64,000 nucleotides of DNA from an uncultured Prolixibacteraceae bacterium (GCA_964473485.1 CAYYPH010000019.1:2668-66667), one strand, 5' to 3'; positions 15,144 to 56,933 are shown, counted from the stretch's first letter. A program made the numbers and translations. Notes: a model not told the origin generated them from the sequence alone.

Positions 15144-15190
15144 TAACACGAAAAGGGGATACCTTTTAGCAATTCTTCGTTGTACTTTAG
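15144..15190 (+). promoter_or_regulatory. Box C operator-promoter, copy 1 (upstream of RR2)
   Basis: TAACACGAAAAGGGGATACC, then TACTTTAG at 15183, 39 nt from the hexamer. The -7 box deviates at position 7. GATACCTTTT inside the box is an alternative -7. Confidence 0.4.
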
Positions 15191-15861: not shown

Positions 15862-16036
15862 GTTTTAAGTTTTCAGTTCACAGTTTCCAGTTTAACCAAC
15901 TACCGACTGACATGCGGACTAGTGAGCAAGTGGACAAGCGGACAAGTTACCTTAACTGCAAACTGCCTAATGCCTACTGTCTATTGCCTACTGCCAATTG
16001 CCTATTGCCTATTGCCTATTGCCTTCTGCCTACTTG
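15862..16036. repeat. Mosaic array: (AGTTTTM)n, (GACAAGYG)n, (TGCCTAY)n
   Basis: Read directly. It starts at the RR2 stop codon (AAATAAGTTTTAAGTTTT) and ends with TGCCTATTGCCTATTGCCTATTGCCTTCTGCCTAC. Confidence 0.9.
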
Positions 16037-16084
16037 TAACACCAAATGGGGATTGACTTACTCGTTTCTGTAATCGTACATTTG
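16037..16084 (+). promoter_or_regulatory. Box C operator-promoter, copy 2 (upstream of Ycf48-like copy 1)
   Basis: TAACACCAAATGGGGATTGAC, then TACATTTG at 16077, 40 nt from the hexamer. Confidence 0.45.
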
Positions 16085-18238: not shown

Positions 18239-18360
18239 TGCCCTGCCCCTTGAATATGAATTAATCAATGGGGGAGCATAAAGTAACCCATATACTGTCG
18301 ATAAACCTGTTCTTTTCCAATAAATAAACTATCTTTACCTGTCTGTTTTATGGCAGATCC

Positions 18361-20769
18361 ATGAAGAAAATACTGCCTGTTTTCCGCCGGATCACCTATT
18401 GGGCCTACCTCCTTGTGGCGCTCGTACTGGCGGCGAACACCATTAACCTGATTTATCAGTATAAAGCCGCTCGCAGCGGGGAACACTTCAGCCTGAACAA
18501 CGGTTTTTATATCATCGATTTTATCGGGGAGGATACGCCGGTTGGCCGGACAGAGATAAAAACGGGGGATACCATTGTTTCCTGCAACGGCATTTCGATT
18601 CCGGAATGGACATCGTTTTATCACGGCCAGGTGGCAGGCGATACGCTCATCTTCGGGATCCTAAGGAATAACGTGGAGATTGGGATCCCGGTGATCGAGG
18701 ATTCTTACTTTTCGGAAGGGGCCGGGTATATATGGGCCAGCTACCTTGTTTCAATCCTGGTCAGCATCGGGAGCCTGTATCTGCTGGTCAGGCGTCCGAA
18801 GGATAAGGAGGTCAAATTGTTTTTCATTTATCTGCTTTTAGTGGCGCTCATAAGCGCCCAGCCGAATTTTATACCTTTTCCGCTTCTTCTCCCTGTACTG
18901 GCCAAATCGTTATTCATCATGTTGGGTTCCTTGTATGGCGCCGTCCTGATCCACTTTCACCTTATCTTTCCGCGCCGGGCCTTGATCCTTCAGAAGTTCA
19001 GGCATCTTCCGGTGGTTTTTTACGGAACCGGTGTCGTTGGTTCGTTATTTTTCCTGGTCCGGTACATTCAATGGGTCTATTTTCCGTCCGGTGAAACAGA
19101 TGAACTTTTTTTGACGGCAATACGTATCTCGCTTTATTCCAATACCGCGTTTTTTACGATAGCGCTGGTCATTGCCATCTATCAGTATATCACAATAAAA
19201 AATACCCTTGCAAGGAATCAGCTTATGCTTCTGCTTACCGGATCTTTTTTCGTATTCCTGCCACTTTTCACGTTGGCATTTTTTTACAATTGGGTTACAA
19301 GCATCCCATGGCCTTTTACGGTTGACGTGGCTTCTGCTGCGGGTAACCTGATATTGGTCCTGTGTATCCTGATCGCCGTTTTCCGGTACCGGATCTGGAA
19401 CGTTGAAGTGGTGGTCAGGAAGGCACTGCTTTACCTGACAGCCACCGCAATGATCATCCTGGTCTATTTTTCATTGGTCTGGATCGTTGACCGTCTCCTG
19501 GTCCGTGAGAACAACCTTTCCCGTTTCCTGATACTGGCTGTTTCCGTTACGGCATTCCTGCTTCTCAGGGACCGGATGCAGCGGATGATCGACCGGATAT
19601 TTCACCGTGAAACCTATGATTCGGCCACCGTGGTTTCCGAGTTTGAATCTAAACTGGCGGGCATCTACCGGTTGGATGAACTTACCGCCAGGATCGTTCA
19701 ATCGCTTGACGAGATATTCCATTTCAGGAGCTTTGCCTTCAACCTGAGAAAAGAGGGGCTGGTCTACCGTACGGTCACTTTTCAGGGGACCGGGTATGTC
19801 CCCGACGGTCATGAATTCACCGTCACACGGGAGTTTGATGAAAAGCTGCGAAGATCCGGCGTATTTGCTCCTGCTGAACTCATTAACCCGCAAGAACTCC
19901 CAGGAATACGGGACGAGGAGCTGATCGTGCCGGTCACGAAGGATCATGACCCGCAGGGTTTCTTCCTGTGCGGCCCTAAAAAGTCGGAGCGAATCTATTC
20001 GCAGCAGGATATCCGGGTTCTGTCACTTCTTGCCCAAAGGGTGATCGCATTGCTTCACACCGCTTCGCTCTACCAGAAAGACCTGGACCGCCAGGTCATG
20101 CTGGAACGTGAACGCCATCGCATCTCGCAGGACATGCACGATGATGTCGGTGCAAGCCTTACCAGGATCTCGATTTTAAGCGAGCTGGCCAGGAACAGGC
20201 CGGATTTATCAGGTGAAACCCGTCAATGGCTGGGCCAGATCAGCGAGACCAGCAGGGAGGTGATGGAGGAGATGAGCCAGATCATCTGGGCGCTGAATCC
20301 GAAAAATGATACGTTGAACGGGCTGATCGCTTACATCCGGAGATTTGCCAACGAGTATTTCGAACCAACTTCCATCGCCTGCCGGTTCAACCTGCCTGAA
20401 TCCTTACCCGATTTTACGCTGACCGTCGAGGTCCGCCGAAACATCTACCTGGTCGTAAGGGAAGCCCTGCATAATGCGGTGAAGCATTCCGGGGCCGCTG
20501 AGGTGATGATTGAACTCACCCCCCAATACCTCGGAGCTTCATTGATCTCACCCCCCAACCCCATCTCCTTCAAGGAGAGGGGGAGTAAGGGAGAGAGGTC
20601 CTTCACCCTATCCATCCGCGACAACGGCAAAGGGTTCGATCCCTCCGCCCCGGAATTCCCCGGCAACGGGCTGGTCAACATGAAGAAGAGGATGGAGGAG
20701 ATCGACGGGAGGCTTGAGTTGAAGAGTGTACCAGGTGAAGGAACAATGGTAAAACTTGTGATTCCGTGA
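18361..20769 (+). CDS. Sensor histidine kinase HK3 (PDZ, multi-TM, GAF-like, HisKA_3, HATPase_c), no adjacent regulator
   Basis: PDZ-like IKTGDTIVSCNGISIPEW...GDTLIFGILRNNVE. H-box ERERHRISQDMHDDVGASL, EALHNAVKHS, DNGKGFD...GNGLVNMKKR. The next gene is a FISUMP protein, not a regulator. Confidence 0.85.
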   Translation: MKKILPVFRRITYWAYLLVALVLAANTINLIYQYKAARSGEHFSLNNGFYIIDFIGEDTPVGRTEIKTGDTIVSCNGISIPEWTSFYHGQVAGDTLIFGILRNNVEIGIPVIEDSYFSEGAGYIWASYLVSILVSIGSLYLLVRRPKDKEVKLFFIYLLLVALISAQPNFIPFPLLLPVLAKSLFIMLGSLYGAVLIHFHLIFPRRALILQKFRHLPVVFYGTGVVGSLFFLVRYIQWVYFPSGETDELFLTAIRISLYSNTAFFTIALVIAIYQYITIKNTLARNQLMLLLTGSFFVFLPLFTLAFFYNWVTSIPWPFTVDVASAAGNLILVLCILIAVFRYRIWNVEVVVRKALLYLTATAMIILVYFSLVWIVDRLLVRENNLSRFLILAVSVTAFLLLRDRMQRMIDRIFHRETYDSATVVSEFESKLAGIYRLDELTARIVQSLDEIFHFRSFAFNLRKEGLVYRTVTFQGTGYVPDGHEFTVTREFDEKLRRSGVFAPAELINPQELPGIRDEELIVPVTKDHDPQGFFLCGPKKSERIYSQQDIRVLSLLAQRVIALLHTASLYQKDLDRQVMLERERHRISQDMHDDVGASLTRISILSELARNRPDLSGETRQWLGQISETSREVMEEMSQIIWALNPKNDTLNGLIAYIRRFANEYFEPTSIACRFNLPESLPDFTLTVEVRRNIYLVVREALHNAVKHSGAAEVMIELTPQYLGASLISPPNPISFKERGSKGERSFTLSIRDNGKGFDPSAPEFPGNGLVNMKKRMEEIDGRLELKSVPGEGTMVKLVIP
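20547..20598 (+). repeat. In-frame G/C-rich palindromic element inside the HK3 ATPase domain
   Basis: CTCACCCCCCAACCCCATCTCCTTCAAGGAGAGGGGGAGTAAGGGAGAGAGG encodes ISPPNPISFKERGSKGER. Confidence 0.7.
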
Positions 20770-20796
20770 TATCTCCACCTTTCAGGTCATCCATGT

Positions 20797-20846
20797 AATT
20801 ACTACTTTTTGGTGATACCGCCTGCATTTTTCCCGGAATAACTTTG
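20797..20846 (+). promoter_or_regulatory. Box B operator-promoter, copy 1 (upstream of FISUMP gene)
   Basis: AATTACTACTTTTTGGTGATACC, then TAACTTTG at 20839, 39 nt from TACTAC. ATG at 20861. Confidence 0.55.
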
Positions 20847-20860
20847 ATGGAAAAAACGCC

Positions 20861-22198
20861 ATGAAAAAGACCGTTCTGTTTTCAGCGGTGATGATCCTGT
20901 TTATTCTTCATGTCCCAGGTCAGCGATCATCCCTTAATCTGACATTTACAGCCATCGACAGTGCTGCCTATACCGTTCTCGACCGTATTAAAGTAATGAA
21001 CCGGTCGGGCGGGGGCGATACCGTACTGAACTGGCCCGACACGGTTTTGTCGCTCATTCCGGTATCAATCAGAAATCTCACAAGAGAAAACGACCCGTTC
21101 AGGGTCTTTCAGAACTATCCGAATCCTGTCTTCGATCAGACAATTGTTTCCATTTACATCCCCGGCAAAGACCTTGTGGAGATAAAGATCATTGATCCGT
21201 CGGGCCGTGTTCTGTTAACGGATAAACGAGAACTTGATAAAGGGATCCACTCTTTCCGGTTTATTCCAGGAAGCGGATCCTTTTTTTTCTTCTCTGTCCG
21301 GTGGAGAGACCAACATGGGAGTATCAGGATGTTACGGACAACCGAAGGGTCTTCCGCAAAGACCTCGCTGCACTACCTGGGTCTAAAGGGTTCCAACCCT
21401 CGTTTCAAATCGGCTGCTGCAATTCAGCAATTTTGTTTCTACCCTGGCGATACTTTGCTTTGCATCGGATATGCCGGCGCTTTTGAGTCAGGGATCCTTC
21501 GTGCTCCGGCTACCTCCGAAACACTCACCTTCCGGTTTGCCTCAGGCATCCCCTGTCCGGGTATGCCCACGGTTATTTACGAAGGCCAGGTTTACAACAC
21601 CATCCAGGTGTTCAGCCAGTGCTGGCTGAAGGAGAACCTCAACGTAGGTGCCATGATCAGCGGTAACCAGAACCAGACCAACAACGGGATTATCGAAAAG
21701 TACTGTCACAACAACCAGCCCGACAGCTGCAGCAAATACGGCGGGTTGTACCAATGGGACGAAATGATGCAGTATGCTACGCAGCAGGGTTCACAGGGTA
21801 TCTGCCCCCCGGGCTGGCATATCCCGGCCGATGAGGAGTGGAAAGTGCTGGAAGGAGCCGTAGACAGCCAATACGGGATCGGTCACAGCGTTTGGAACAG
21901 CCAGGGCCTGCGAGGATCTGACGCCGGGAAAAACCTGAAGACCACAGTCGGCTGGAACAACAACGGCAACGGTACCGACCTTTTCGGATTTTCCGCGTTG
22001 CCGGCTGCTTACCGGCTTACCAATGGAACATTTGAGGTAACCGGGATCGAAGCGGTCTGGTGGAACTCCACTCCCTTCATTCCCGACTATGCGTGGTACC
22101 GTAATATCCACCATTTCTCGACGAAAGCCGGCCGTTTTGCCGACTCCTGGAGTTATAAGAATTACGGTTTCAGCGTGAGATGCCTGCGGAATGAATGA
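20861..22198 (+). CDS. Secreted FISUMP-domain (Fibrobacter succinogenes major paralogous domain) protein with an internal Por-tail-like domain
   Basis: Signal peptide MKKTVLFSAVMILFILHVPGQ. C-terminal half has YEGQVYNTIQVFSQCWLKENLNV...GGLYQWDEMM...CPPGWHIPADEEWKVLE...GFSALPAAYR...YGFSVRCL. Confidence 0.75.
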   Translation: MKKTVLFSAVMILFILHVPGQRSSLNLTFTAIDSAAYTVLDRIKVMNRSGGGDTVLNWPDTVLSLIPVSIRNLTRENDPFRVFQNYPNPVFDQTIVSIYIPGKDLVEIKIIDPSGRVLLTDKRELDKGIHSFRFIPGSGSFFFFSVRWRDQHGSIRMLRTTEGSSAKTSLHYLGLKGSNPRFKSAAAIQQFCFYPGDTLLCIGYAGAFESGILRAPATSETLTFRFASGIPCPGMPTVIYEGQVYNTIQVFSQCWLKENLNVGAMISGNQNQTNNGIIEKYCHNNQPDSCSKYGGLYQWDEMMQYATQQGSQGICPPGWHIPADEEWKVLEGAVDSQYGIGHSVWNSQGLRGSDAGKNLKTTVGWNNNGNGTDLFGFSALPAAYRLTNGTFEVTGIEAVWWNSTPFIPDYAWYRNIHHFSTKAGRFADSWSYKNYGFSVRCLRNE

Positions 22199-22207
22199 TT
22201 TCTGGTC

Positions 22208-22259
22208 AAATTACTACTTTTTGGTGATTGAATCCGGCAAGCGGTTGGTGATACCTTTG
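22208..22259 (+). promoter_or_regulatory. Box B operator-promoter, copy 2 (upstream of GH-like propeller/M28)
   Basis: AAATTACTACTTTTTGGTGATTGA, then TACCTTTG at 22252, 40 nt from TACTAC. ATG at 22280. Confidence 0.55.
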
Positions 22260-22279
22260 GTGGAAAAAAAGGAGGTCAT

Positions 22280-23602
22280 ATGAAAAACACATCTACAATT
22301 GTCACAACCTGTGCCTTACTCTGTATCATCATGGGATGGAACAGGGCCGGCGCACAGGATCCGCTTGAGTTCACCGGATCGATCTTCAATCCGGTCCTTG
22401 TACACGGTGGACCTGGTTCGTACGATGAAAACCTGCTCGTCGGATCCAATATTACCTGGTCAGACGGTATTTTCTACCTCTATTATGTGGGGATCGGAAT
22501 GAACGAGCAGGGTGTCTGTCTGGCCACCTCTGTTGATGGTTATATATTTGACAAATCAGAAGATAATCCGCTGCTTACCCCATCAGGCACGGGATTTGAT
22601 TCCCTGGGGGCAGGTAGCGGCCCTGTTGTAAAAGACGGGCAGACCTGGGTCATGTACTACAATGCACGTCAATATCCAGGATGGGGGCCCGGTGAATCTA
22701 CCGGCAGGGCGACCGCCCAGGATCTTACCGGTCCATGGCAGAGGTCGGCGGGGCCTGTGATCACAGTGGGAAGTCCCGGGGAATGGGATGCCGCATTGAT
22801 CAGCACCACTTCTGTTCTTCCCCTTGATACCGGAGGCTTCATCATGTATTACTATGCTTCTGATGACTTCAACAATGCGTGGCTGATGGGGATGGCGACC
22901 TCCCCTGACGGCATCACCTGGAACAAATACAATGACCCGAACACCACCGATCCCCCATATGCCGAAAGCGACCCCATCCTCCCGGCCGGTGCGGCGGGCG
23001 AATTTGATGAATGGGGGGTTGTGGGTTCAGGCGTTGTAAGAATGCACGGTTTTTATCATATGTATTATGCCGGATTGGGTCCGGGTCCCGGCGGATTTCG
23101 CACGGATGTCGGATATGCATACAGTACCGACGGTATCACCTGGGAGAAGTGGCCGGAGAATCCGGTCTATGTGCAGGAGAATGACCCTTACTTTGATCCC
23201 TCCACAATGATCTTCGAAAACAACGCGATCCTGGTCCATGGCGCCTACGTTTACATGTATTATGATTACGGGACAGTTGAGAACGCCATCGGGTTAGCCA
23301 CGGCGCCTAACATCTGGGAAGGCATCGGAGACAGAACGACGAATGACGGATTACGTATGACGAATTATCCCAACCCGGTCCGACAGTCAACCGTTTTCTG
23401 CTATTACCTTGATGAATACACCCATGTGAAACTCGAGGTTTTCGATGGTTACGGTAACAGGATTGCTATACCTGCGGATGAGAGCCAGACGGCCGGAGAA
23501 CAACGGATATTGTGGAATGCCCGCGATCTTCCAGCGGGAATATACAACTACAGGCTGACTGCTAAAGGAATACAGGAAACAGGGAAACTCATCAAACTCT
23601 AA
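22280..23602 (+). CDS. Five-bladed beta-propeller glycoside-hydrolase-like protein (GH43/GH130-type fold) with T9SS tail
   Basis: Signal peptide. Repeated W-x-MYY / DGxxW blade motifs (DGQTWVMYYNA, GGFIMYYYAS, SPDGITWNK, STDGITWEKW). Tail YPNPVRQSTVFCYYL...LPAGIYNYRL...GKLIKL. The exact GH family is not determinable by eye. Confidence 0.55.
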   Translation: MKNTSTIVTTCALLCIIMGWNRAGAQDPLEFTGSIFNPVLVHGGPGSYDENLLVGSNITWSDGIFYLYYVGIGMNEQGVCLATSVDGYIFDKSEDNPLLTPSGTGFDSLGAGSGPVVKDGQTWVMYYNARQYPGWGPGESTGRATAQDLTGPWQRSAGPVITVGSPGEWDAALISTTSVLPLDTGGFIMYYYASDDFNNAWLMGMATSPDGITWNKYNDPNTTDPPYAESDPILPAGAAGEFDEWGVVGSGVVRMHGFYHMYYAGLGPGPGGFRTDVGYAYSTDGITWEKWPENPVYVQENDPYFDPSTMIFENNAILVHGAYVYMYYDYGTVENAIGLATAPNIWEGIGDRTTNDGLRMTNYPNPVRQSTVFCYYLDEYTHVKLEVFDGYGNRIAIPADESQTAGEQRILWNARDLPAGIYNYRLTAKGIQETGKLIKL

Positions 23603-23634
23603 GTGTAGATACTTTGCCCAATTGCCTGAAACAC

Positions 23635-25785
23635 ATGAGATCAATCTTGTATATTATCCTTTTCTTTCCGTTACTGGCTGGTAAAGTTGAAGGCCAGAAT
23701 CCGGTGATTCAGGCTTGCCTGGCAGAGGTGAATGCCGACAGTATCAAGGCAACCATGCAGCGCCTGCAGGATTACGGAACACGTTACTTCATGGCAGGAA
23801 ACCGTAAGGAGATCGCCACCTGGATCATGAACAGGTTCATGGGTTACGGATACACGGCGGCGGCGCTGGATTCGGTACAGATGAAAAATTCCGATACTAC
23901 GCTCTGGCAATACAACGTGGTTTGTACTATTCCCGGCATTAGCGCGCCCGGTGAGATCACTGTCGTCGGAGGTCATTACGACTCTTTCAATACCATCGAC
24001 CCGATGGCCAGCGCCCCGGGAGCGGATGACAATGCTTCGGCCGTTGCGGCTACACTTGAAATGGCAAGGGTGATAAAGGTGACTGGTTACCAGCCCGTAT
24101 CCACCATCCGGTTCGTTCTCTTTGCAGCGGAAGAGTCCGGATTTGTAGGATCCTGGCATCAGGCCGGAAGGTCTGCCGATATGGGTGAAGACATACGGTT
24201 GATGTACAACATGGATATGATCGCCTTCGACACCGGTAACGTCAATACTGTTTTCCTGTTCAATTACAGGGGAGCTGAAAGTGCTTATAATCTGGCTTCC
24301 CGGGCTATTCAGCAATATACCGGACTCGATGTTCTTCCCGGACCCGCTGACCACCAGAACAGATCCGATTCCTATGTTTACCGGGAGAAAGGATACCAGG
24401 TAACCTGGGCGAGAGAAAAAGTATTCAACGTCCATTATCATTCATCTGAGGATATCGTGGCCAACTGCAACCTGTCCTATTGCGCGGAGGTGACCCGCGG
24501 AGTTCTTGCCGGTGTCCTGGAAATGCAGTACCGGCCCTTTCCACAGGGCATGGCTGCTGTCTCGTCTGAAAATGCCGTATCGGTTCACTGGAAACCCTGC
24601 CGCAACGGCAACCTGAAAGGCTTCAACATCTACCGGTCGGAAAACGACAGCAACGCTTTTCAGAGACTAAACACAACGATGGTCAGGGATACGTTTTTTG
24701 TGGATCATTCCGTTCATCTGTCAAGAGATTATTATTACTATGTAACGCTTGTTAACGATTCCATGCAGGAAAGCGTCCCTTCTCCAACGGTCAATGGGGC
24801 GCGGTTCAGATTCACCGACACACTTCTCGTGGTGGCCTGCCTGAAAGGTGAACAAAACACGCCCGATTCAATCCGGAACTTCTATGATTCCGTTCTCGAC
24901 AGCATCCCTCACCGGTGGTTCGAAATGAACAAAAGTTCGCACCTCACCCTGGCCACAATGTCACATTACCGGAATATGCTGTGGGTGATCAATTCCCTGG
25001 AATACGATAAGATTACCGTTCAGGTTGCACACGACCTTGAAGTCTTCTTCGCCAACCACGGAAACATGATGTTCGCTGGATTTTCATTTGCCCGGTTCAT
25101 GTTGGGCAACATTGGATTTCCGTCAAAGATCCCTGAAACTTCAATCCCTTTCCGATATTTCAGGGCCGACTCGGTCGATAAAAGGATCTACAGCTATATG
25201 TACCGGACTTACCCGGATGATGAGGACTATGATACCTTGTATGTGGACACCCTGAAGAGTTTCAAACCGGGTTTCCCCGGGGAACTTTACAATATTGAGG
25301 TCTGTACCCCTGCCTTCGGAGGAAATCCAATTTACCGGTTCGATTCGAAGTACGATCCAGGAACCACCCAGGGCGCCCAGCAGGGAAAGATTGTGGGAAT
25401 GGAATATATGGGCAATGACTTCCGTACGTTACTCCTTAGCTTCCCACTCTTTTACCTGGATACTTCCGATGCAAGGAGGCTGATGACCTACGTAGTAAGG
25501 AGCAGGTTTGCAAATCAAACGGGGGAACCAGAGGCCGGACGCCCGGCATGGTCATCCCTTCAAATCTATCCGAATCCCTCCCCTGATTTGATTACCATTG
25601 CCGGCAATGAAGTCAGTATCCGCGGAGAGTTGTCGGTGATCCATATGAGCGGCCGGTTGGCGCTCAGGCAGCCCATCGGCCCTGGCAGATCCACCCTGAA
25701 CATCGGTTCATTGCCGGCAGGTATCTATATCGTGAAGATCGTTTATGAAAATGGTTGTTTCGCAGGCAAATTCATCAAAAATTAG
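23635..25785 (+). CDS. M28-family metallopeptidase with extra domains and T9SS tail
   Basis: The start is trimmed to MRSILYIILFFPLLAGKVEGQ. Has GGHYDS, GADDNASAVAATLEMARV and FAAEESGFVGSW, then an FN3-like segment (VHWKPCRNGNLKGFNIYRS). Tail YPNPSPDLITIAG...LPAGIYIVKI...GKFIKN. Confidence 0.8.
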   Translation: MRSILYIILFFPLLAGKVEGQNPVIQACLAEVNADSIKATMQRLQDYGTRYFMAGNRKEIATWIMNRFMGYGYTAAALDSVQMKNSDTTLWQYNVVCTIPGISAPGEITVVGGHYDSFNTIDPMASAPGADDNASAVAATLEMARVIKVTGYQPVSTIRFVLFAAEESGFVGSWHQAGRSADMGEDIRLMYNMDMIAFDTGNVNTVFLFNYRGAESAYNLASRAIQQYTGLDVLPGPADHQNRSDSYVYREKGYQVTWAREKVFNVHYHSSEDIVANCNLSYCAEVTRGVLAGVLEMQYRPFPQGMAAVSSENAVSVHWKPCRNGNLKGFNIYRSENDSNAFQRLNTTMVRDTFFVDHSVHLSRDYYYYVTLVNDSMQESVPSPTVNGARFRFTDTLLVVACLKGEQNTPDSIRNFYDSVLDSIPHRWFEMNKSSHLTLATMSHYRNMLWVINSLEYDKITVQVAHDLEVFFANHGNMMFAGFSFARFMLGNIGFPSKIPETSIPFRYFRADSVDKRIYSYMYRTYPDDEDYDTLYVDTLKSFKPGFPGELYNIEVCTPAFGGNPIYRFDSKYDPGTTQGAQQGKIVGMEYMGNDFRTLLLSFPLFYLDTSDARRLMTYVVRSRFANQTGEPEAGRPAWSSLQIYPNPSPDLITIAGNEVSIRGELSVIHMSGRLALRQPIGPGRSTLNIGSLPAGIYIVKIVYENGCFAGKFIKN

Positions 25786-25803
25786 GCGGTAGAACTGTTC
25801 ACC

Positions 25804-25846
25804 GGCGAGGGGCAATTCAACAATTTGCCTCTCGCCACCTTTTTTC
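25804..25846 (+). terminator. Rho-independent terminator after the M28 peptidase gene
   Basis: GGCGAGGGGCAA / TTGCCTCTCGCC forms a 12-bp stem (one G-U) with an 8-nt loop, followed by ACCTTTTTTC. Confidence 0.7.
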
Positions 25847-25876
25847 ATACATTTACTACGGCCAACATCACCTTCC

Positions 25877-28276
25877 ATGTCGGTAATGTTCAGTTCTCTC
25901 CGCCTGATACCTTTCCGGGCATATCTGCTGGTATTCCTTGTCATTCTGGTCAATTCCATTTACTTCTGTTACAAAGGCAAATATCCGGACGACGGAATGA
26001 TCCTTCGATCAGAAAATGGCCGGTGGATCGCTGATCAATTCAGGCATGGCAGTCCTGCGTATAACGCGGGTGTCAGATCCGGTGACATCATACGTTCCAT
26101 TGGTGGAGGGTCGGTTGAAGCCTGGCTCAACAATAATTCAGGGCTGAAGGCCGGCGAAACAGTCATTTACCGGATTGAAAGAAACGGCCGTCCTCTCCAG
26201 ATAAGGGTTACAATGACTTCCTATTTTTCAGAGGCGGCCGGTTTTTTCTGGCTGATCCTTATTCTACCCACCATGTTCAGCATTGCATCGCTTTACCTGC
26301 TGTGGAAAAAACCGAAAGAAAAGGCCGCCTGGCTGTTTTTCATCTTTCTACAGTTGTTCGCGGTAAACACAAACGCATTATCCCTGCATTTTCCGGAATT
26401 TTTATCCATCCTGGCTTGCAATGTCTTTTTATTGTCCGGGACATTGCTTGGCCCTGTCCTGATCCATTTCCACCTGGTTTTCCCCAAACCTGCCAGCCTC
26501 CTCAGGCGCTTTACATGGCTCCCGCTCGTTTTCTACCTCGCGGGTATCCTGATTTTCATTCCCTATTCCATCATTCAATACCATTGGGCAATTTCTGATC
26601 TGCGCATCGGCACCATGTACGGTGATATGGACCGGATTGGTCTTACCTGGATGGCGCTGGCCTATACGATTGCTTTGCTTACAGCCATCTATCAGTTATT
26701 GACCAGCAGGGATACCTTGTCGCGGAATCAGCAACGAATGGTCATTATCGGTTCATTTTTTGGGTTTTTCACCCCGGTAGGATATGCCTTGTTCTATCAT
26801 TCGGTCAACCAACTGAACAATTATATCCTTTTCATCATGGTTCCCCATGGAACCGGGAGTCTGATCATGATCTGCTGCATCCTGGTGGCCATCTTTCGTT
26901 TCCACATCTGGGATATGGAGTTGATCATCCGCAAGGCCCTGCTCTACCTTGTTGCAACGGCATTCATCATCCTTTCTTATCTGCTGCTGATCTGGTTAGT
27001 GGATCTGATCGTCCTGAAGGAGTCGGATCTCAGCCGTTTTCTTGTTCTGGGCATTTCGGTGATCCTTTTCCTCGTACTGCGCGACCGGCTGCAGCGGTTT
27101 ACCGACCTGCTTTTTCACCGTGAAAGCTACGATTCAGCCACCGTCGTTTCCGGATTTGAAACCAGTCTCGCAGGGATATACCGCTTTGATGAACTGAAAG
27201 AAAAGATCGCACAAAGCATCGACGCGATCTTTCATTTCAAATCCTTTGCCTTTAATCTGAAGAAGAAAGGGCTGATCTATGACCCGGTATTTGTCCTCGG
27301 CGCCGGCAGTTCCGTCGAGGGGCAGGAATATGGGATAGACCGGGAGTTTGAAGACAGACTTCGGAAATCGAAGGTCTTTTCCCCGAAAGAAATAACCAAC
27401 AAACCTCAAATATTTGAAAAAATCAACGGCGAACTGGTCATTCCCATGGTGTCCGGCGGGCAACCGAACGGTTTCTTCATATGCGGGCAGAAGAGGTCGG
27501 AAAGGATCTACTCGAGACAGGACATCCAGTTGCTGCATCTGCTTGCACAGCGGGTGATTGCACTGCTGCATACGGCCGGTCTTTTTCAAAAAGACCTGGA
27601 CCGTCAGCTCATGCTTGAAAGGGAAAGGGCGAGGATCTCGCACGACATGCACGATGACGTAGGAGCCAGTCTTACCCGTATCTCCATCCTAAGCGAACTC
27701 GCAAAAAACAAGGCAGAAACAGACAAGGAGACCAGGCAATGGCTTGAACAGATCTCCTCCACGTCGCGCAGCGTCACCGAGGAGATGAGCCAGATCATCT
27801 GGGCGCTGAACCCGAAGAATGACACACTGGAAGGCCTGATCGCCTACATCCGGCGTTTCGTCGGCGAATACCTCGAACCGACCTCCGTTTCCTGCCGGTT
27901 CAACCTGCCTGATTGCCTGCCGGACCTGCCGCTGACCGTTGAAGTTCGCCGGAATATTTACCTGGTCGTCAGGGAGGCATTGCACAATGTGGTCAAGCAT
28001 TCAGAGGCGAGTGAGGTTGTCATAGGCCTCACCTCCGTTGGAGATTCTTTGACCTCACCCCCCAGCCCCCTCTCCTTCAAGGAGAGGGGGAGTAAGGGGG
28101 AGAAGTCATTTACTATCTCCATCTCCGACAACGGCAAAGGGTTCGATCCCTCCGCCCTGGAATTCCCAGGCAACGGGCTGGTCAACATGAAAAAGAGGAT
28201 GGAAGAAACCGGCGGGAGGCTTGACTTGAAGAGTGTACCAGGTGAAGGAACAATGGTAAAACTTGAGATTCCGTGA
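25877..28276 (+). CDS. Sensor histidine kinase HK4 (PDZ, multi-TM, GAF-like, HisKA_3, HATPase_c)
   Basis: PDZ-like GVRSGDIIRSIGGGSVEAW...GETVIYRIERNGRP. H-box ERERARISHDMHDDVGASL, EALHNVVKHS, DNGKGFD...GNGLVNMKKR. Confidence 0.85.
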   Translation: MSVMFSSLRLIPFRAYLLVFLVILVNSIYFCYKGKYPDDGMILRSENGRWIADQFRHGSPAYNAGVRSGDIIRSIGGGSVEAWLNNNSGLKAGETVIYRIERNGRPLQIRVTMTSYFSEAAGFFWLILILPTMFSIASLYLLWKKPKEKAAWLFFIFLQLFAVNTNALSLHFPEFLSILACNVFLLSGTLLGPVLIHFHLVFPKPASLLRRFTWLPLVFYLAGILIFIPYSIIQYHWAISDLRIGTMYGDMDRIGLTWMALAYTIALLTAIYQLLTSRDTLSRNQQRMVIIGSFFGFFTPVGYALFYHSVNQLNNYILFIMVPHGTGSLIMICCILVAIFRFHIWDMELIIRKALLYLVATAFIILSYLLLIWLVDLIVLKESDLSRFLVLGISVILFLVLRDRLQRFTDLLFHRESYDSATVVSGFETSLAGIYRFDELKEKIAQSIDAIFHFKSFAFNLKKKGLIYDPVFVLGAGSSVEGQEYGIDREFEDRLRKSKVFSPKEITNKPQIFEKINGELVIPMVSGGQPNGFFICGQKRSERIYSRQDIQLLHLLAQRVIALLHTAGLFQKDLDRQLMLERERARISHDMHDDVGASLTRISILSELAKNKAETDKETRQWLEQISSTSRSVTEEMSQIIWALNPKNDTLEGLIAYIRRFVGEYLEPTSVSCRFNLPDCLPDLPLTVEVRRNIYLVVREALHNVVKHSEASEVVIGLTSVGDSLTSPPSPLSFKERGSKGEKSFTISISDNGKGFDPSALEFPGNGLVNMKKRMEETGGRLDLKSVPGEGTMVKLEIP
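28054..28100 (+). repeat. In-frame G/C-rich palindromic element inside the HK4 ATPase domain
   Basis: A perfect 9-bp stem CCCCTCTCC-ttcaa-GGAGAGGGG (28067..28089) followed by GAGTAAG; encodes SPPSPLSFKERGSKGE. Confidence 0.75.
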
Positions 28277-28303
28277 TACACACCCTCTCAGGGTGCAGGT
28301 AAG

Positions 28304-28353
28304 AAATACTACTTTTTGGTGATACCTTTTCTCTTGCGATCATTGTAATTTAG
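28304..28353 (+). promoter_or_regulatory. Box B operator-promoter, copy 3 (upstream of RR3)
   Basis: AAATACTACTTTTTGGTGATACC, then TAATTTAG at 28346 (39 nt; an imperfect -7 box). ATG at 28371. Confidence 0.45.
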
Positions 28354-28370
28354 CTGTTAATTAATATCGG

Positions 28371-29024
28371 ATGAAATACACGGGAAATGAATATACAGAA
28401 CCTATCCGGATTGCCCTGGTAGAAGATGATAAAACCGTCAGGGAAGGATTGCAGATGCTCCTCAATGGCTCCCCCGGATTCACCTGCGTGGCTGCATACA
28501 ACAGCGGGGAAGATGCCCTTGCAGGGATTCCTGATATGCTGCCGGAAGTGACGCTTATGGACATCAACCTTCCCGGCATCAACGGTATCGAATGTATACT
28601 TAAGCTCAAGGAACAGCAATTACCCATTCTCTTCATCATGCTGACGGTTTTCGAAGACGCCGACGCCATCTTCCGGTCGCTTTCAGCAGGTGCATGCGGA
28701 TATTTACTCAAACATACCCCACCCGCAAAACTGCTGGAAGCCATCCAGGATGTCTACCGGGGCGGTTCTCCCATGTCGGGGGAGATCGCACGAAAGGTGG
28801 TTCAGTCATTTCAGCAGGTACCCGCAAAAAACCATGACCAGGCCAACCTGACGAAACGGGAAGAGGAGATCCTCAACCTCCTGTCGCAAGGATATTTTTA
28901 CAAAGAGATCGCCCATTCTCTTTCCATCAGCGTCGAAACCGTCCGCACCCACATTCGCAACATCTACGAAAAGCTACAGGTCAGGACCCGGACGGAGGCA
29001 ATTCTGAAGTACTTGGGAAAGTAG
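28371..29024 (+). CDS. NarL/FixJ (LuxR-type HTH) response regulator RR3
   Basis: IALVEDDKTVREGL...TLMDINLPGING; [46 protein letters not shown]. By eye about 70% identical to RR2. Confidence 0.9.
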   Translation: MKYTGNEYTEPIRIALVEDDKTVREGLQMLLNGSPGFTCVAAYNSGEDALAGIPDMLPEVTLMDINLPGINGIECILKLKEQQLPILFIMLTVFEDADAIFRSLSAGACGYLLKHTPPAKLLEAIQDVYRGGSPMSGEIARKVVQSFQQVPAKNHDQANLTKREEEILNLLSQGYFYKEIAHSLSISVETVRTHIRNIYEKLQVRTRTEAILKYLGK

Positions 29025-29064
29025 GCAGTAGGCAGTTTCAAGTTGGCAGTTGCCAGTTGGCAGT
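29021..29064. repeat. Heptamer array GTAGGCAG/AGTTGGCAG (reverse complement of the 12614 unit family)
   Basis: Read directly. The RR3 stop TAG is inside the first unit (AAGTAGGCAGTAGGCAG). Confidence 0.9.
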
Positions 29065-29096
29065 CGATCGTAAACGGGAGTCACCAGAAAAAATAT

Positions 29097-30449
29097 ATGG
29101 CCATGAAAACAAAATGTTCATTATTTGCGATTTTCCTTTTTGCCACCATTTTTACCATGGGGCAATGGACCACCACCTATTTTTCGCAGGCAGTCATTCG
29201 AACGGGTGGTGTGAAACTCGGCAACAAAGCTTGTTTCGCGGGGGGCTCGTCGGCCAACGCGGGAAACTGGTTTGATACCGACAATATCGAGATCTACGAC
29301 ATGGCAACCGGGACCTGGGAGATCGACCATCTGACCCAGGCACGAGCCTATGCCGTCGGGGTGACCTGCGGCGACAAGGCTTTTTTCGCCGGGGGGTTGA
29401 TGAGCTATCCTTTTCCTTCATCAAGAGTGGATATCATTACCACTGCAGGGATATGGGATTATTACGACCTCTCCATCCCCAGGTTTTCCCTTGCTGCGGT
29501 GGCCAACGACACCCTGGCATTGTTTGCAGGCGGTGTGGATATCAGCCTGAACCAGGTTTATGATGTGGTCGACATGTACCATGCGAACACAAATACCTGG
29601 ACGCTTTCAAACCTCTCGGTACCGCGGTGCGCAATGGGATTTGCGGCGGTCGGCGGCCGGGCCTTCTTTGCCGGGGGCATGAATGTCGACAACAGCATGG
29701 TTTACAACAGGGTCGACATCTACAATTTTTCCGACGGAACCTGGGACACGGCTTCCCTCTCGCAGGCAAGGGGCCATATCGGGACCACTGTGGTCGGCCA
29801 GAAGGTGATCTTTGCCGGGGGCAGCCTGGCAAACAGCGTGGTGAGCGACCGGGTCGACATCTTTGACCTGGGCACAGGCCAATGGAGCACTACGACCATG
29901 CCCGCGCCCAAGGCATTTTCCATCCATCAATCGGTTACCTTCGGCGATAAAGCCTGGTTCGTTGCAGGATCCGTCTTCAACAACGGCTGGGATACCGATT
30001 CGGATACCATCGACATCTTTGACCCGGCCGACAACACCTGGTCGGTTTTGATCATGCCGAGCCGGCTCAACGACCATACGGTGATTGTGATGGACACCTC
30101 GGTGCTGATCGGGGGCGGCTGGACATTCACAACCTACCCCTGGGGAAATCCACAGGACGAGATGTATATCTACAGTGATCCCTCCGTTGGCACCGGCCGC
30201 AACCATCCAAATAGCAAAGATATGGTGCTGTATCCCAATCCTGCCAGGGGAACGATTACGATCGAAACACGGAGGGTTCCGGCAGGAACAAGTCTAATCA
30301 TCTCCGGCATTCAGGGTCGCCCCCATATGGTTGTACCCATCACCCAGGGAAGAGCGACGGCCGACATCCGGGAGTTGCCGGCAGGCATCTATATTGTGCA
30401 GCTGACAACCGCAAACTCTTCATTGGTCGCAAAGTTTGTCAAGGAGTGA
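29097..30449 (+). CDS. Kelch-repeat (six-blade) protein with T9SS tail
   Basis: The start is trimmed to MAMKTKCSLFAIFLFATIFTMGQW. Six units of the form FFAGG...V(D)IY(D)...G(T)W. Tail YPNPARGTITIET...LPAGIYIVQL...AKFVKE. Confidence 0.75.
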   Translation: MAMKTKCSLFAIFLFATIFTMGQWTTTYFSQAVIRTGGVKLGNKACFAGGSSANAGNWFDTDNIEIYDMATGTWEIDHLTQARAYAVGVTCGDKAFFAGGLMSYPFPSSRVDIITTAGIWDYYDLSIPRFSLAAVANDTLALFAGGVDISLNQVYDVVDMYHANTNTWTLSNLSVPRCAMGFAAVGGRAFFAGGMNVDNSMVYNRVDIYNFSDGTWDTASLSQARGHIGTTVVGQKVIFAGGSLANSVVSDRVDIFDLGTGQWSTTTMPAPKAFSIHQSVTFGDKAWFVAGSVFNNGWDTDSDTIDIFDPADNTWSVLIMPSRLNDHTVIVMDTSVLIGGGWTFTTYPWGNPQDEMYIYSDPSVGTGRNHPNSKDMVLYPNPARGTITIETRRVPAGTSLIISGIQGRPHMVVPITQGRATADIRELPAGIYIVQLTTANSSLVAKFVKE

Positions 30450-30463
30450 CCGGCCATACCCAG

Positions 30464-30513
30464 AAATACTACTAATTGGTGATTGATTCCCCCTCGTCAC
30501 AAAAGTAACTTTG
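30464..30513 (+). promoter_or_regulatory. Box B operator-promoter, copy 4 (upstream of Ycf48-like copy 2)
   Basis: AAATACTACTAATTGGTGATTGA, then TAACTTTG at 30506, 39 nt from TACTAC. Confidence 0.5.
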
Positions 30514-30669
30514 TTCGTCGGTTATCAACTGCACTGCCCGGATACCTGATAAGACTGATCATCCACCGGACACCGCGCTGATCGATATTCCCCAATGGCG
30601 ACAGGACATCATTTGTCAAAATTTCATAAGACCATGAAAAATATTGGTTCGAAGAAACACAAACCGAAT

Positions 30670-32736
30670 ATGAAAAGAATTAACCTCCTGATGATGGCAC
30701 TCTGGCTGACCGGGGTGAATGCCATCGCCCAATGGCAAACGGTCAATCCGCTGCCGACCGGGCAAAGTTTATACGGCCAATGCTTTACGGATGAAAACAC
30801 CGGGTACCTGGTTGGTTACAACGGGGTTATCTTTAAAACTGTGGATGGTGGCGACAGTTGGAAAAGCAAGGAATCAGCAACCACCGAAGTGCTCTGCAGT
30901 GTCTCCTTCCCCGATGCACTCAACGGCTACGCAGCCGGCGAGCACGGAACCATCGTAAAAACGACCGATGGCGGGAATACCTGGGTTTCGCTTAACACGG
31001 GTTCATACGTCGATCTTTCATCCATATGTTTTACGGATGCAACTACCGGTTATGCAGCCGGGTTTGGAGGGACCATCCTGAAAACCACCGACGGGGGCGT
31101 CACCTGGCTGTCCAAACAGGCCGGGACCACGCGGTGGCTCCGTTCCGTTTGCTTTCCTACCGCGTCGACTGGCTATGCAGTGGGCGACAGCGGAACCATC
31201 CTCAAGACCGTCAACGGAGGAAACAGCTGGAATCTGCTCTCTTCCAACACCACGCATCGCCTGTATTCTGTTGACTTTGTGGATGAAATCCGGGGATTTG
31301 CAGTGGGGGGCACCGAGGCGGCCGCATTGCAGGGGGTCATCCTCCGGACCACGGATGGCGGGCAGTCGTGGGGAATCTATCCAACGTCATTCAACCAGGT
31401 ACTGACATCGGTCTCCTTTCCTTCTGCAAATACCGCTTATGCCGTCGGTTTCAACGGTAAAATGGTCAGAACCACCGATGCTGGAGTGACCTGGAATGCC
31501 GTTTCCACCGGGAATCCGAATCAGTTGAACTCAGTCTTATTCACCAGCGCATCAAACGGCAGGATTATTGGCAATGACGGTACCATAATCTATACAGCCA
31601 ACGGCGGAGATGCATGGACACGGCAAGGAGCTGTCACCGCAAAGGGACTCCGGGATCTCTGCTTCCCCACTCCATCGGTGGGGTATACCGCCGGCCTTTC
31701 GGGAACCATTCTTAAAACGACCGATGGCGGAAACAGCTGGAACCGCCTGGAGTCGGGCACTCCGGCCGACTTCTTTGCCATCGATTTCCCGGAACCGGGC
31801 GTTGGGTATGTTACAGGCTGGAGTGGCAGGATCTTAAAAACCACCGACGGAGGATTAACGTGGGTCTCATTGCCCGTTGGGCCTCAGCCGCCCCTGTTTT
31901 GCGTCCGTTTCCAGGATGTTAACACCGGTTATGCCGCCGGGATGAATGGAGTCATCCTGAAGACCACGAATGGAGGGACGAGCTGGACCCCACTGGCCAC
32001 CGGGGTCACGGAATGGATCTTCACCCTCTGTTTCCCTGATCCGGCCACCGGGTATGCCTTTACCTATGATGGATCGGTACTAAAGACGACCGATAGCGGC
32101 GTAACCTGGAGCAAGATCTACGCTTCCGAAGACCTGAGCCTGATCTCGGCAGATTTCACCGATACCGCCACCGGTTGTGCGGTGGGCACCAACGGTACCA
32201 TCCTCAGGACCACCGACGGAGGTGCGACCTGGACCAGCATACCATCGGGAACCAATTACAGGCTGATGGATGTGCAGTTCCTGGATGACGACCGGGGTTT
32301 TATCTCGGGTGATCACGGAATGATCTTAAAGACTGTGAACGGAGGACTATCCTGGTCAAGCCAGAACTCAGGAACCAGCTATGATCTTCCGGCTGTTTGT
32401 TTTTATGATGCCAACCACGGATGTGCCGTGGGTGACTTTGGCACGATCCTGACCGGGCTGGATTACGGGGTCGGCAATTACGAGAATGCGCAACAGGCCG
32501 GTCTTTTCATCTTCCCCAATCCTGCCACTGATTGGGTATCCATCGGAGCCCCGGATGCATCCGTTTCATTCCCGGCTGAAGTATCCATTTTCGGGATCGA
32601 CGGGAAGGAAGTGATCCGATGGGAAACCAGTAAAAGGACCGTTAAAACCGATGTCCGGACATTACCCCCCGGGCTTTATTTCGTTCGATACCGGGCTGAT
32701 GACAGGGCCTTTACGGGAAAATTCGTCAGGCCTTGA
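30670..32736 (+). CDS. Ycf48/BNR-like beta-propeller repeat protein with T9SS tail, copy 2
   Basis: The start is trimmed to MKRINLLMMALWLTGVNAIAQW (ATGs at 30595 and 30634 are also possible). Same GTIxKTTDGGxxW repeat as 16178..18238 but GC-rich. Tail FPNPATDWVSIG...LPPGLYFVRY...GKFVRP. Confidence 0.75.
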   Translation: MKRINLLMMALWLTGVNAIAQWQTVNPLPTGQSLYGQCFTDENTGYLVGYNGVIFKTVDGGDSWKSKESATTEVLCSVSFPDALNGYAAGEHGTIVKTTDGGNTWVSLNTGSYVDLSSICFTDATTGYAAGFGGTILKTTDGGVTWLSKQAGTTRWLRSVCFPTASTGYAVGDSGTILKTVNGGNSWNLLSSNTTHRLYSVDFVDEIRGFAVGGTEAAALQGVILRTTDGGQSWGIYPTSFNQVLTSVSFPSANTAYAVGFNGKMVRTTDAGVTWNAVSTGNPNQLNSVLFTSASNGRIIGNDGTIIYTANGGDAWTRQGAVTAKGLRDLCFPTPSVGYTAGLSGTILKTTDGGNSWNRLESGTPADFFAIDFPEPGVGYVTGWSGRILKTTDGGLTWVSLPVGPQPPLFCVRFQDVNTGYAAGMNGVILKTTNGGTSWTPLATGVTEWIFTLCFPDPATGYAFTYDGSVLKTTDSGVTWSKIYASEDLSLISADFTDTATGCAVGTNGTILRTTDGGATWTSIPSGTNYRLMDVQFLDDDRGFISGDHGMILKTVNGGLSWSSQNSGTSYDLPAVCFYDANHGCAVGDFGTILTGLDYGVGNYENAQQAGLFIFPNPATDWVSIGAPDASVSFPAEVSIFGIDGKEVIRWETSKRTVKTDVRTLPPGLYFVRYRADDRAFTGKFVRP

Positions 32737-32867
32737 ATCGGATCCGTGCCCGGCAGTTCAGGATGATTTTGAACACGGGAGAATTCCGGCATGTTGGAAC
32801 AAGCATCAGACCAAGCATCAACGACTGAATCAAAACAAGACAAAATGAAATAATAATTCCCCTTGCC

Positions 32868-34541
32868 ATGAAAAAGAACATCATCGCTATAATGCCCGGC
32901 CTCCTCGTGGTTCTTCTGTTGATGCCGGCATCCGCCCTAACGCAAGTCTTAAACAACGCCGCTGACAAGATTATCGTGAAATTCATTGAACCGATTGATC
33001 CGGTTATTTCCAGGAACAGTGACCAGGTCATCCGGTTTAACCTTCCGGAGGTAGATGAATTGAATACCCGGTATGGTTGTCAGGAAGCACGCAGGCTGCT
33101 CCAGGGGCCGAAGAGTATGAACCGGTCCCGAATCTGGTTACTGAGGTTCAGGGGCGCACCCGATATTGCCACATTAATCCGTGAATACCAGGCAACCGGC
33201 CATTTCCGTTATGTAGAACCTGACTGGACCGGCACGTTGGCCGGGACCCATTCACCGGATGATCCACCCAGCGACCTCTATTTTTACCGCCAATGGTCTT
33301 TGTTTAACGACGGGACCTTCCCATACATGCCCGCCAAAATCGGGGCGGATATCGACATGCTGCCGGCGTGGGAGATTGAAGAAGGCGACTCCGCCCTCAT
33401 AGCCGGCATCCTCGACACCGGGTGCAAACTGGATCATCCCGAGTTTTCAGGCAGGATCTGGACAAACGATGGCGAAATTCCGGGTAACGGGATCGATGAT
33501 GACAACAATGGTTTCATTGACGACGTGCATGGGTGGAACTTCGCCTATGGGAACAATGATCCTACCGACGACAACGGGCACGGGACCTGTGTTGCCGGTG
33601 TCCTGGGTGCGAATGGAAACAACGGGATGGGTTACGCCGGCGTGAACTGGCACTGCAAGCTGCTGAATATGAAAGTGCAGGACAATATGGGCTACGGCTA
33701 TTACTCCGCCTGGATCGATGCCATTCACTACTGCGTTGAAAACGGTGCCAGGGTGCTGAACATGTCGCTCGGCGGAACCCAGAACTCAAATGCGCTGCAC
33801 GATGCCATCGATTATGCCTTGTCGCACAACGTGGCCATCGTGGCGGCCATGGGGAACAACAACACGGTTTTGCCGTTGTATCCGGCCGCATACCCGGGTG
33901 TGATCGCAGCCGGGTCAACCGATCCCGACGACACCCGGTCCTTGCCATTTGTTGGTGGAGAGGCAGGCAGCAATTATGGTCAGCACATCTCGGTGGTCGC
34001 CCCCGGAAACTATATTTTCGGCCTCGATTACCTCCATGACTATGAATATTACTGGGCGTGGTCAGGTACCTCGTTTGCCACGCCGCATATTGCCGGGGTA
34101 GCCTCCCTCCTGTTCTCCCAGGATCCAGGCAGGACGCCCGCCGCGGTCAAGTCCATCATGGAAAATACCGCCGATGACCTGGTGGGCAATCCCTACGAAG
34201 ATACACCGGGCTGGGACCAGTATTATGGCTATGGACGGCTCAATGCCTTCCAGGCTTTATCGGGGGATAAATCGTTAAGGATGCATGCGTTGGCTGTGGA
34301 GCCGATACTCATCTTCCCAAACCCAACCAGCGGACCCGTGACCATCACACAAAGGACTTCTTCACCCGGATTGCCTTCCGAGATCATCATCACCGACATC
34401 CTGGGCAGGGAACATTCCCGAACACCTGCGTCTACCGCGTCAACGCACCTAAACCTGGGTTCTGAGCCCGCGGGGATCTACCAGGTGACCGTTACCGACG
34501 GTAAAAAGATCTGGAGGGGGAACGTGGCAGTGGTCAGGTAA
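32868..34541 (+). CDS. Subtilisin-like S8 serine peptidase with T9SS tail
   Basis: Catalytic triad contexts ILDTGCKLDHPEF, HGTCVAGVLGA, GTSFATPHIAGVASLL. Tail FPNPTSGPVTIT...EPAGIYQVTV. Confidence 0.9.
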   Translation: MKKNIIAIMPGLLVVLLLMPASALTQVLNNAADKIIVKFIEPIDPVISRNSDQVIRFNLPEVDELNTRYGCQEARRLLQGPKSMNRSRIWLLRFRGAPDIATLIREYQATGHFRYVEPDWTGTLAGTHSPDDPPSDLYFYRQWSLFNDGTFPYMPAKIGADIDMLPAWEIEEGDSALIAGILDTGCKLDHPEFSGRIWTNDGEIPGNGIDDDNNGFIDDVHGWNFAYGNNDPTDDNGHGTCVAGVLGANGNNGMGYAGVNWHCKLLNMKVQDNMGYGYYSAWIDAIHYCVENGARVLNMSLGGTQNSNALHDAIDYALSHNVAIVAAMGNNNTVLPLYPAAYPGVIAAGSTDPDDTRSLPFVGGEAGSNYGQHISVVAPGNYIFGLDYLHDYEYYWAWSGTSFATPHIAGVASLLFSQDPGRTPAAVKSIMENTADDLVGNPYEDTPGWDQYYGYGRLNAFQALSGDKSLRMHALAVEPILIFPNPTSGPVTITQRTSSPGLPSEIIITDILGREHSRTPASTASTHLNLGSEPAGIYQVTVTDGKKIWRGNVAVVR

Positions 34542-34734
34542 TGCCCGTCCAGCTTAGTCCGCTGGTCTGTATAGTCGGCGACGGGGAGGCAACAGGAGTG
34601 ACACCGGAGATCGTTGCAATACGATGGGCATACCCGATCCTGTCGTCCTCGTTGTTAACGGTCCCTGGAAACTGGCCACCCAAAAATCCGCGGTATTTCA
34701 AAAAAAATCGGACCTTTGTATAAAAGTTTCGATC

Positions 34735-35747: not shown

Positions 35748-35750
35748 CCC

Positions 35751-56916: not shown

Positions 56917-56933
56917 ATTTTTCTTTCCCGGCG

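Follow-up and report, generated by a model that had tools for sequence, protein, structure and literature searches.

What is the role of a short DNA element that recurs four times in a two-component gene cluster of an uncultured Prolixibacteraceae bacterium? The element, which we call box B, lies in a stretch of 64,000 nucleotides (GCA_964473485.1, CAYYPH010000019.1:2668-66667; hereafter the window, with positions counted from its first letter), in which four paralogous HisKA_3 histidine kinases (HK1-HK4) and three response regulators of the NarL/LuxR type (RR1-RR3) are encoded on one strand, interleaved with genes for secreted proteins. A preliminary description of the window had put the element forward as the mark of a regulon under RR3. 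This proposal is supported in silico by the phasing of box B with predicted promoter elements, by its association with RR3 homologues in other genomes, by covariation between box and recognition helix, and by its low abundance; on this comparative evidence, box B is probably an operator tied to RR3.

The 17-mer TACTACTTTTTGGTGAT is found without change on the plus strand at 20800-20816, 22212-22228 and 28307-28323, and a fourth copy on the same strand, TACTACTAATTGGTGAT at 30467-30483, deviates at two positions, both of them within the A/T-rich central spacer. An exact and mismatch search thereby recovered the four copies, with three identical cores and two changes in the fourth, that had been described before. 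Box B measures 17-19 nt and, taken with its A(A/T) prefix, starts at 20798, 22210, 28305 and 30465, the starts originally given being 1-2 nt too low. With up to three mismatches allowed, the chance expectation for the 17-mer is 0.15, and four copies were obtained in none of 100 shuffles. All four lie between genes, in gaps of 81-145 nt, and begin 28, 11, 28 and 15 nt (copies 1-4) past the preceding stop codon, in agreement with the earlier placement just behind it. These four make up the entire count in the window, every one in a promoter.

Each copy is set at a fixed distance from a -7 box, which the final T of its ...GAT end precedes by 22, 23, 22 and 22 nt in copies 1-4 (Table 1); the -7-like box noted previously is therefore confirmed, while the spacing is tighter than the 30 nt or so attributed to it. 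A search of the entire window, on either strand, for TA[ACT]NAC placed 36-42 nt upstream of TAnnTT[TA]G gave eight sites and no others, each at a distance of 39-40 nt: the four B boxes and two copies each of two related elements, boxes A and C. In an alignment of these eight promoters, TA..AC, a G and an AT are invariant, as are positions of the -7 box. A -33 TTG, 19-21 nt upstream of the -7 box, is present in copies 2 and 4 (GAT-TGA); it is not found in copies 1 and 3 (GAT-ACC) and is likewise missing from the orthologous regulator promoters of three related metagenome contigs (L065, L066 and L080). The lack of the TTG in copies 1 and 3 fits activator-dependent promoters. If the -7 box is placed as in Bacteroides and Flavobacterium promoters, which we assume, box B would span about -50 to -34, directly upstream of -33, with its centre at about -42 to -44.

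Does box B occur in comparable settings elsewhere? The pattern AWTACTACTWWTTGGTGAT was scanned in one genome per species, covering 185,579 species, with the source genome not among them. This returned 59 single hits, a number near that expected by chance, of which 32 were in Bacteroidota. Ten hits have a strict TAnnTTTG behind box B at offset 22 and one has it at offset 21, compared with two for the other 58 offsets together, and three further hits have a near-consensus -7 box at offset 22; box B and -7 box are phased as in the window in 15 of the 59. In ten hits, a HisKA_3 kinase and a LuxR-type regulator, encoded on the same strand, end 2-215 nt upstream of box B, the regulators being 50-67% identical to RR3. 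The kinase pairing was confirmed in nine of these ten loci, the tenth (L014) being cut inside the regulator gene. At L014, where the adjoining regulator is 67% identical to RR3, the gene behind box B is a homologue (E = 1e-27) of the propeller cargo gene at 22280 in the window; generally, the genes behind box B in these loci encode signal-peptide proteins, lipoproteins and type IX secretion system (T9SS) cargo. A search with the sequence alone thus rediscovered the RR3 family. Box B is no dispersed repeat; its distribution, four copies in 64 kb that all lie in promoters and one exact copy per matching stretch, differs from that of REP- or MITE-like elements (repetitive extragenic palindromes or miniature inverted-repeat transposable elements). 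The preliminary description had named abundance of the motif irrespective of context as a sign against a regulon; no such abundance is seen, as no stretch in the scan holds more than one exact copy.

The regulator next to L027's box B (oriented 1544-2164) has an in-frame stop codon (...SEREQ*ILQ...) and may be a pseudogene or reflect a sequencing error.

A connection to the regulator itself emerges from the recognition helix. THIRN is the helix motif of RR3 and of all ten box-B-adjacent regulators, each with ETVRTHIRNIYEKL; RR1 has THIHN and RR2 has THLRH. Further loci, 80 in number, were chosen from metagenomes by protein similarity alone; most belong to other phyla with different helices, and about 12 are informative. 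An RR3 ortholog on L065 (81% identical, THIRN) has an exact box B, followed by ACC and TAATTTAG, 64 nt ahead of its start. The RR2 orthologs on L066 and L080 (78%, THIRH) have box C, and a regulator on L131 that is 53% identical to both RR1 and RR3 (THIHN) has a box A-like TACGAC site, TACGACGAAAGTTGTAT. More distant regulators on L068, L069 and L078 (about 59% identical to RR3, THLRN) are accompanied by TACTAC boxes, and another distant one on L143 (THARH) by TAACAC / TACCAC...TGTGAT. Taken over the window, the ten genome loci and the protein-selected loci, THIRN and THLRN go with TACTAC, THIRH and THLRH with TAAYAC...GGGGAT, and THIHN with TACGAC, the match between helix and box tracking two residues of the recognition helix. 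The variable helix residues of RR1-RR3 align to Val191, Lys192 and His193 of NarL, in which base-specific contacts are made by Lys188, Val189 and Lys192 (PMC10853779).

Boxes A and C share the register of box B as well as its distance to the -7 box. Box A is a true 7-2-7 inverted repeat, TACGACG-AA-ATGCGTA. The right half varies among the three boxes and is constant inside each type, and so appears to carry the specificity. As RR1 and RR2 would use boxes A and C, in-register variants of box B, the comparison suggests three paralogous operator types belonging to three tandem, mutually insulated regulons. The box B system is a classical two-component regulon and as such a modest conceptual surprise; what it adds is this set of three apparently insulated operator types in tandem. 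L065, the contig most closely related, has a box A promoter for a cargo gene and a kinase (L065:74), followed by an exact box B ahead of the RR3 ortholog (L065:3526); this mixing of operator types from different modules hints at cross-regulation among the paralogous systems.

How might RR3 act from box B? The protein combines a receiver domain (REC; Pfam Response_reg, 7e-22) with a GerE/LuxR helix-turn-helix (Pfam GerE, 1.5e-17). NarL is both its best match among solved structures (1a04, E = 5.8e-31) and its best NCBIfam match (E = 3e-41), but the score of 141 bits is far below the NarL equivalog cut-off of 250 bits, which makes RR3 a member of the NarL family and not a NarL ortholog. NarL sites consist of inverted heptamers in a 7-2-7 arrangement, TACYYMT-NN-AKRRGTA; at yeaR, one such site, centred at -43.5 immediately upstream of the -35 element, is enough for activation, the C-terminal domain of the RNA polymerase alpha subunit lying in the minor groove between both NarL monomers, and at ogt the activation site is at -44.5 (PMC10853779). 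Like Escherichia coli NarX/NarL, the RR3 system pairs a HisKA_3 kinase with a REC and GerE regulator. The left heptamer of box B, TACTACT, fits six of the seven positions of TACYYMT, and the box would lie just upstream of the -35 equivalent, with an A/T-rich spacer where the alpha-subunit domain is located in the NarL complex. True 7-2-7 geometry is seen in box A and in the T1 sites (TACYACT-NN-AGTRGTA) of related loci, whereas box B lacks it, its right half TTGGTGA(T) being unlike AKRRGTA. The two systems differ, moreover, in their promoters, which in the window are of the Bacteroidota -33/-7 type, in their kinases, which here have about ten transmembrane helices with a PDZ-like loop and are not NarX-type nitrate sensors, and in their targets, which for box B would be secreted and T9SS proteins instead of respiratory genes.

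From the left heptamer, the A/T-rich centre and the predicted position abutting -33, we propose phosphorylated RR3 as a dimeric activator. HK4, which carries HisKA_3 and HATPase_c, is encoded directly upstream of RR3, and HK3 farther upstream. The transmitters of the two kinases are 81% identical at the protein level, compared with 46% for their sensors; given that HK3 has no regulator of its own, near-identical transmitters with divergent sensors point to two sensory inputs into RR3, HK3 probably being the second. In the proposed mechanism, HK4, and probably HK3, would phosphorylate RR3, and an RR3 dimer would bind the 17-bp box B next to the -33 region of four sigma-A-type Bacteroidota promoters with TAnnTTTG. 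From this class-II-like position, as NarL does at yeaR, RR3 would help RNA polymerase to start transcription of its own gene with that of a Kelch cargo, amounting to positive autoregulation, of the FISUMP-domain protein, of the GH-like propeller with the M28 peptidase, and of Ycf48-like cargo #2.

Several points weigh against this reading. Box B is not palindromic: only its left heptamer resembles that of NarL and that of the perfect palindromes (TACYACT-NN-AGTRGTA) ahead of Flavobacteriia-type regulator genes, and no symmetric register accommodates the right half TGGTGAT. Its placement at -50 to -34 depends on predicted -7 boxes. The 15 well-placed genome hits were picked by the exact motif and are thus uninformative on variability inside the box, and the species collection lacks the source genome, hence the count of four covers the 64 kb of the window. 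Finally, some of the pairs of helix and box are orthologs and do not represent independent events. As to symmetry, we tried 7-2-7, 7-3-7, 7-4-7 and 7-5-7 registers, of which only the last (ATYACYA-N5-TRGTRAT, 4-5 of 7 positions) is partly symmetric; it was dropped, being absent from related sites.

The same position could in principle serve the opposite purpose, with RR3 blocking the -33 region from box B and repressing all four promoters, including its own by negative autoregulation. NarL-family regulators do repress from promoter-overlapping sites, a precedent for such an arrangement, and in copies 2 and 4 box B directly borders a -33-like TTG, while it stands in place of that element in copies 1 and 3. 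Nevertheless, we consider repression unlikely: copies 1 and 3, as well as the regulator promoters of L065, L066 and L080, lack any -33 element, as activator-dependent promoters typically do, the predicted position of box B matches that of NarL activation at yeaR and ogt, and the box overlaps neither the -7 box nor the predicted start.

Less probable still is that RR3 is not the reader at all, and that box B is recognized by another factor, or by an alternative sigma factor as an extended -35 element, with RR3-like genes as merely frequent neighbours. The two halves of box B are dissimilar, and the right one, TGGTGAT, equals the half-site of the palindromes ATCRCCA-N4-TGGYGAT, which lie beside more distant regulators (helix TVHTHIRH) on non-Bacteroidota contigs, so that two distinct recognition events on box B are possible. 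However, both halves shift jointly with the helix of the adjacent regulator in boxes A, B and C and are constant within each type, the -7 boxes are of the standard housekeeping form TAnnTTTG, no sigma-factor gene was seen among those inspected within and near the cluster, and the motif-only search fell beside RR3 homologues in ten of 59 hits; on these grounds we give the idea little weight. Hardly credible, finally, are four remnants of a segmental duplication or copies of a small dispersed repeat devoid of any regulatory role, for although copies 1 and 3 trail the 3' ends of the paralogous HK3 and HK4, with their 81% identical transmitters, at a point where public short-read assemblies break, the sequence from stop codon to box and from box to -7 box has fully diverged around the identical 17-mer, the surroundings of copies 2 and 4 are unrelated, and the same box with the same phasing recurs in distant Bacteroidota, with at most a single exact copy in any stretch of the scan, this divergence of the flanks together with the conservation across species excluding inert remnants.

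Palindromic sites accompany relatives of the RR3 system. In loci of the Flavobacteriia type, perfect 16-bp palindromes TACYAC-N4-GTRGTA, equivalent to a 7-2-7 arrangement of TACYACT, lie between kinase and regulator genes (L027:1488, L039:5029, L043:3984, L052:2912, L053:4549, L062:2694, L091:496 and L116:3161). Most are followed by a -7 box 21-22 nt later, and the same loci have box B or a box B-like site past the regulator gene; the palindrome thus precedes the regulator gene and the target gene behind it has the box B form. On GC-rich contigs from outside Bacteroidota (L071-L076, L096, L103, L119, L122, L124 and L141), 18-bp palindromes ATCRCCA-N4-TGGYGAT, followed by TGG, stand upstream of genes for homologous regulators whose helix reads YATVHTHIRH; probably they serve a sister family in other phyla as its operator.

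An activating RR3 at box B would also bear comparison with two other systems. The lux box of LuxR is a 20-bp palindrome centred at -42.5. Quorum-sensing LuxR and RR3 have in common a GerE/LuxR helix-turn-helix and, on the mechanism proposed here, a site of about 20 bp at or overlapping -35, class-II-like activation and a logic of positive autoregulation, but RR3 possesses a phospho-receiver in place of an autoinducer-binding domain, box B is asymmetric, and no gene for an acyl-homoserine lactone synthase was found among the genes examined. PorX/PorY-SigP, the cascade known to regulate T9SS in Porphyromonas and Flavobacterium, is likewise a Bacteroidota two-component system that affects T9SS-related genes (PMC4800418). 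PorX is reported to be a protein of the PglZ family that works via an extracytoplasmic function (ECF) sigma factor and PorL binding and controls genes of the secretion machinery; it differs from the RR3 system, in which a DNA-binding regulator of the NarL type apparently acts on cargo genes directly.

In a non-exhaustive literature search, we found no description in Bacteroidota of the box B motif or of the RR3 regulator family and its regulon. If the operator assignment is confirmed, it would equip a widespread, as yet uncharacterised family of NarL-type two-component systems in Bacteroidota with an operator ready for use and with a regulon of small size, and would place secreted and T9SS cargo genes apparently under the direct control of RR3-type systems. 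To our knowledge, PorXY-SigP apart, little is known about the regulation of T9SS at the level of cargo. As a compact natural system in which to study the insulation of duplicated signalling pathways, the cluster offers three tandem paralogues that differ at just two or three residues of the helix and each possess an operator in register. Tentatively, as a possibility that we regard as well short of probable, one could extend this to an operator code used throughout Bacteroidota by a large, undescribed NarL-like family that controls secreted and T9SS cargo. Two helix residues, at the positions of Lys192 and His193 in NarL, would reprogram heptamer positions 3-4 and the proximal half-site and thereby insulate tandem paralogues; the asymmetry of the box, in which a NarL-like heptamer is distal and TGGTGAT is proximal and next to -33, would be due to a binding or activation geometry specific to the sigma-A promoter of Bacteroidota; and the kinases, by their PDZ-like periplasmic loop, might detect C-terminal peptides from secreted cargo.

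Table 1. Boxes, -7 elements and genes of the two-component cluster, in window coordinates.
Feature	Position	Strand	Sequence	Remarks
Box A copy 1	6484-6500	+	TACGACGAAATGCGTAT	ahead of cargo gene at 6556 and HK1
HK1	9454-11817	+		HisKA_3 kinase, without PDZ-like loop
Box A copy 2	11911-11927	+	TACGACGAAATGCGTAT	ahead of RR1
RR1	11962-12603	+		NarL/LuxR-type regulator
HK2	12707-15079	+		HisKA_3 kinase, PDZ-like loop
Box C copy 1	15144-15160	+	TAACACGAAAAGGGGAT	type TAACACSAAAWGGGGAT; ahead of RR2
RR2	15208-15861	+		NarL/LuxR-type regulator
Box C copy 2	16037-16053	+	TAACACCAAATGGGGAT	type TAACACSAAAWGGGGAT; ahead of Ycf48-like cargo #1
HK3	18361-20769	+		orphan paralogous kinase, no adjacent regulator
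Box B copy 1	20798-20816	+	ATTACTACTTTTTGGTGAT	then ACC; promoter of FISUMP gene
-7 box of copy 1	20839-20846	+	TAACTTTG	exact TAnnTTTG
Target 1	20861-22198	+		secreted FISUMP-domain protein; box B copy 1
Box B copy 2	22210-22228	+	ATTACTACTTTTTGGTGAT	then TGA, giving a -33-like TTG; promoter of GH130-like propeller cargo and M28 peptidase
-7 box of copy 2	22252-22259	+	TACCTTTG	exact TAnnTTTG
Target unit 2	22280-25785	+		GH130/GH43-like propeller T9SS cargo (22280-23602) and M28 peptidase T9SS cargo (23614-25785)
HK4	25877-28276	+		multi-pass membrane HisKA_3 kinase, PDZ-like periplasmic loop; putative kinase partner of RR3
Box B copy 3	28305-28323	+	AATACTACTTTTTGGTGAT	then ACC; promoter of RR3 (putative autoregulation)
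-7-like box of copy 3	28346-28353	+	TAATTTAG	one deviation from TAnnTTTG
Target unit 3	28371-30449	+		RR3 and Kelch cargo; box B copy 3
RR3	28371-29024	+	ETVRTHIRNIYEKL (recognition helix)	REC and GerE/LuxR helix-turn-helix; proposed box B binder
Kelch-repeat T9SS cargo	29043-30449	+		18 nt past RR3
Box B copy 4	30465-30483	+	AATACTACTAATTGGTGAT	then TGA; promoter of Ycf48-like cargo #2
-7 box of copy 4	30506-30513	+	TAACTTTG	exact TAnnTTTG
Target 4	30595-32736	+		Ycf48/BNR-like T9SS cargo #2; box B copy 4
S8 protease	32868-34541	+		T9SS C-terminal domain; downstream of Ycf48-like cargo #2, perhaps in the same unit

The Kelch cargo is presumably co-transcribed with RR3. A T9SS C-terminal domain was found in the first genes behind the other B boxes and in the Kelch, M28 and S8 proteins; the FISUMP protein has no C-terminal T9SS sorting domain above threshold, so that the earlier label of T9SS cargo holds for the former and is not demonstrable for FISUMP. 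The kinases HK2-HK4 share an unusual layout of one transmembrane helix, the PDZ-like loop (about residues 40-115), some nine more transmembrane helices, a linker, and HisKA_3 with HATPase. In HK4, the loop gives weak matches to PDZ, DegP and RseP; as a speculation, a PDZ sensor in these kinases could bind C-terminal peptides of secreted cargo.

The final 60 nt or so of the HK3 and HK4 coding sequences are almost identical at the DNA level. For contigs that encode RR3, a look-up gave only five short Logan contigs, all of this organism. Four of the five (L002-L005), from independent short-read assemblies, start 74 nt upstream of RR3 and so add no new flanks; they break at one point just upstream of box B copy 3, likely because the 3' end of HK3 and HK4 together with box B is repeated.

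An Rfam scan of 18000-36000 gave no match at E <= 1, and scans of the four box B intergenic regions found neither terminator-like hairpins nor sigma-70-type promoters; with the Rfam and terminator scans empty, box B was rejected as an RNA element or terminator. A GC-rich hairpin with a T-run (GGCGAGGGGCAA…TTGCCTCTCGCC ACCTTTTTT) lies at 25786-25876, 3' of the M28 peptidase gene; it was not listed by the simple terminator scan and probably marks the end of the transcription unit of box B copy 2, ahead of HK4.

Short tandem repeats with a period of 7, and also of 4, 8 and 14, fill many intergenic regions of the window, such as TGCCTAT x10 and GAATTTT x7 (971-1055, 12616-12667, 15964-16032, 29019-29064, 35507-35744, 54889-55031, 56795-56921, 59569-59638, 60268-60416 and 61095-61160). 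Such repeats stand directly past the stop codons of RR1, RR2 and RR3, and similar arrays follow the regulator stop codons on L065, L066 and L080.

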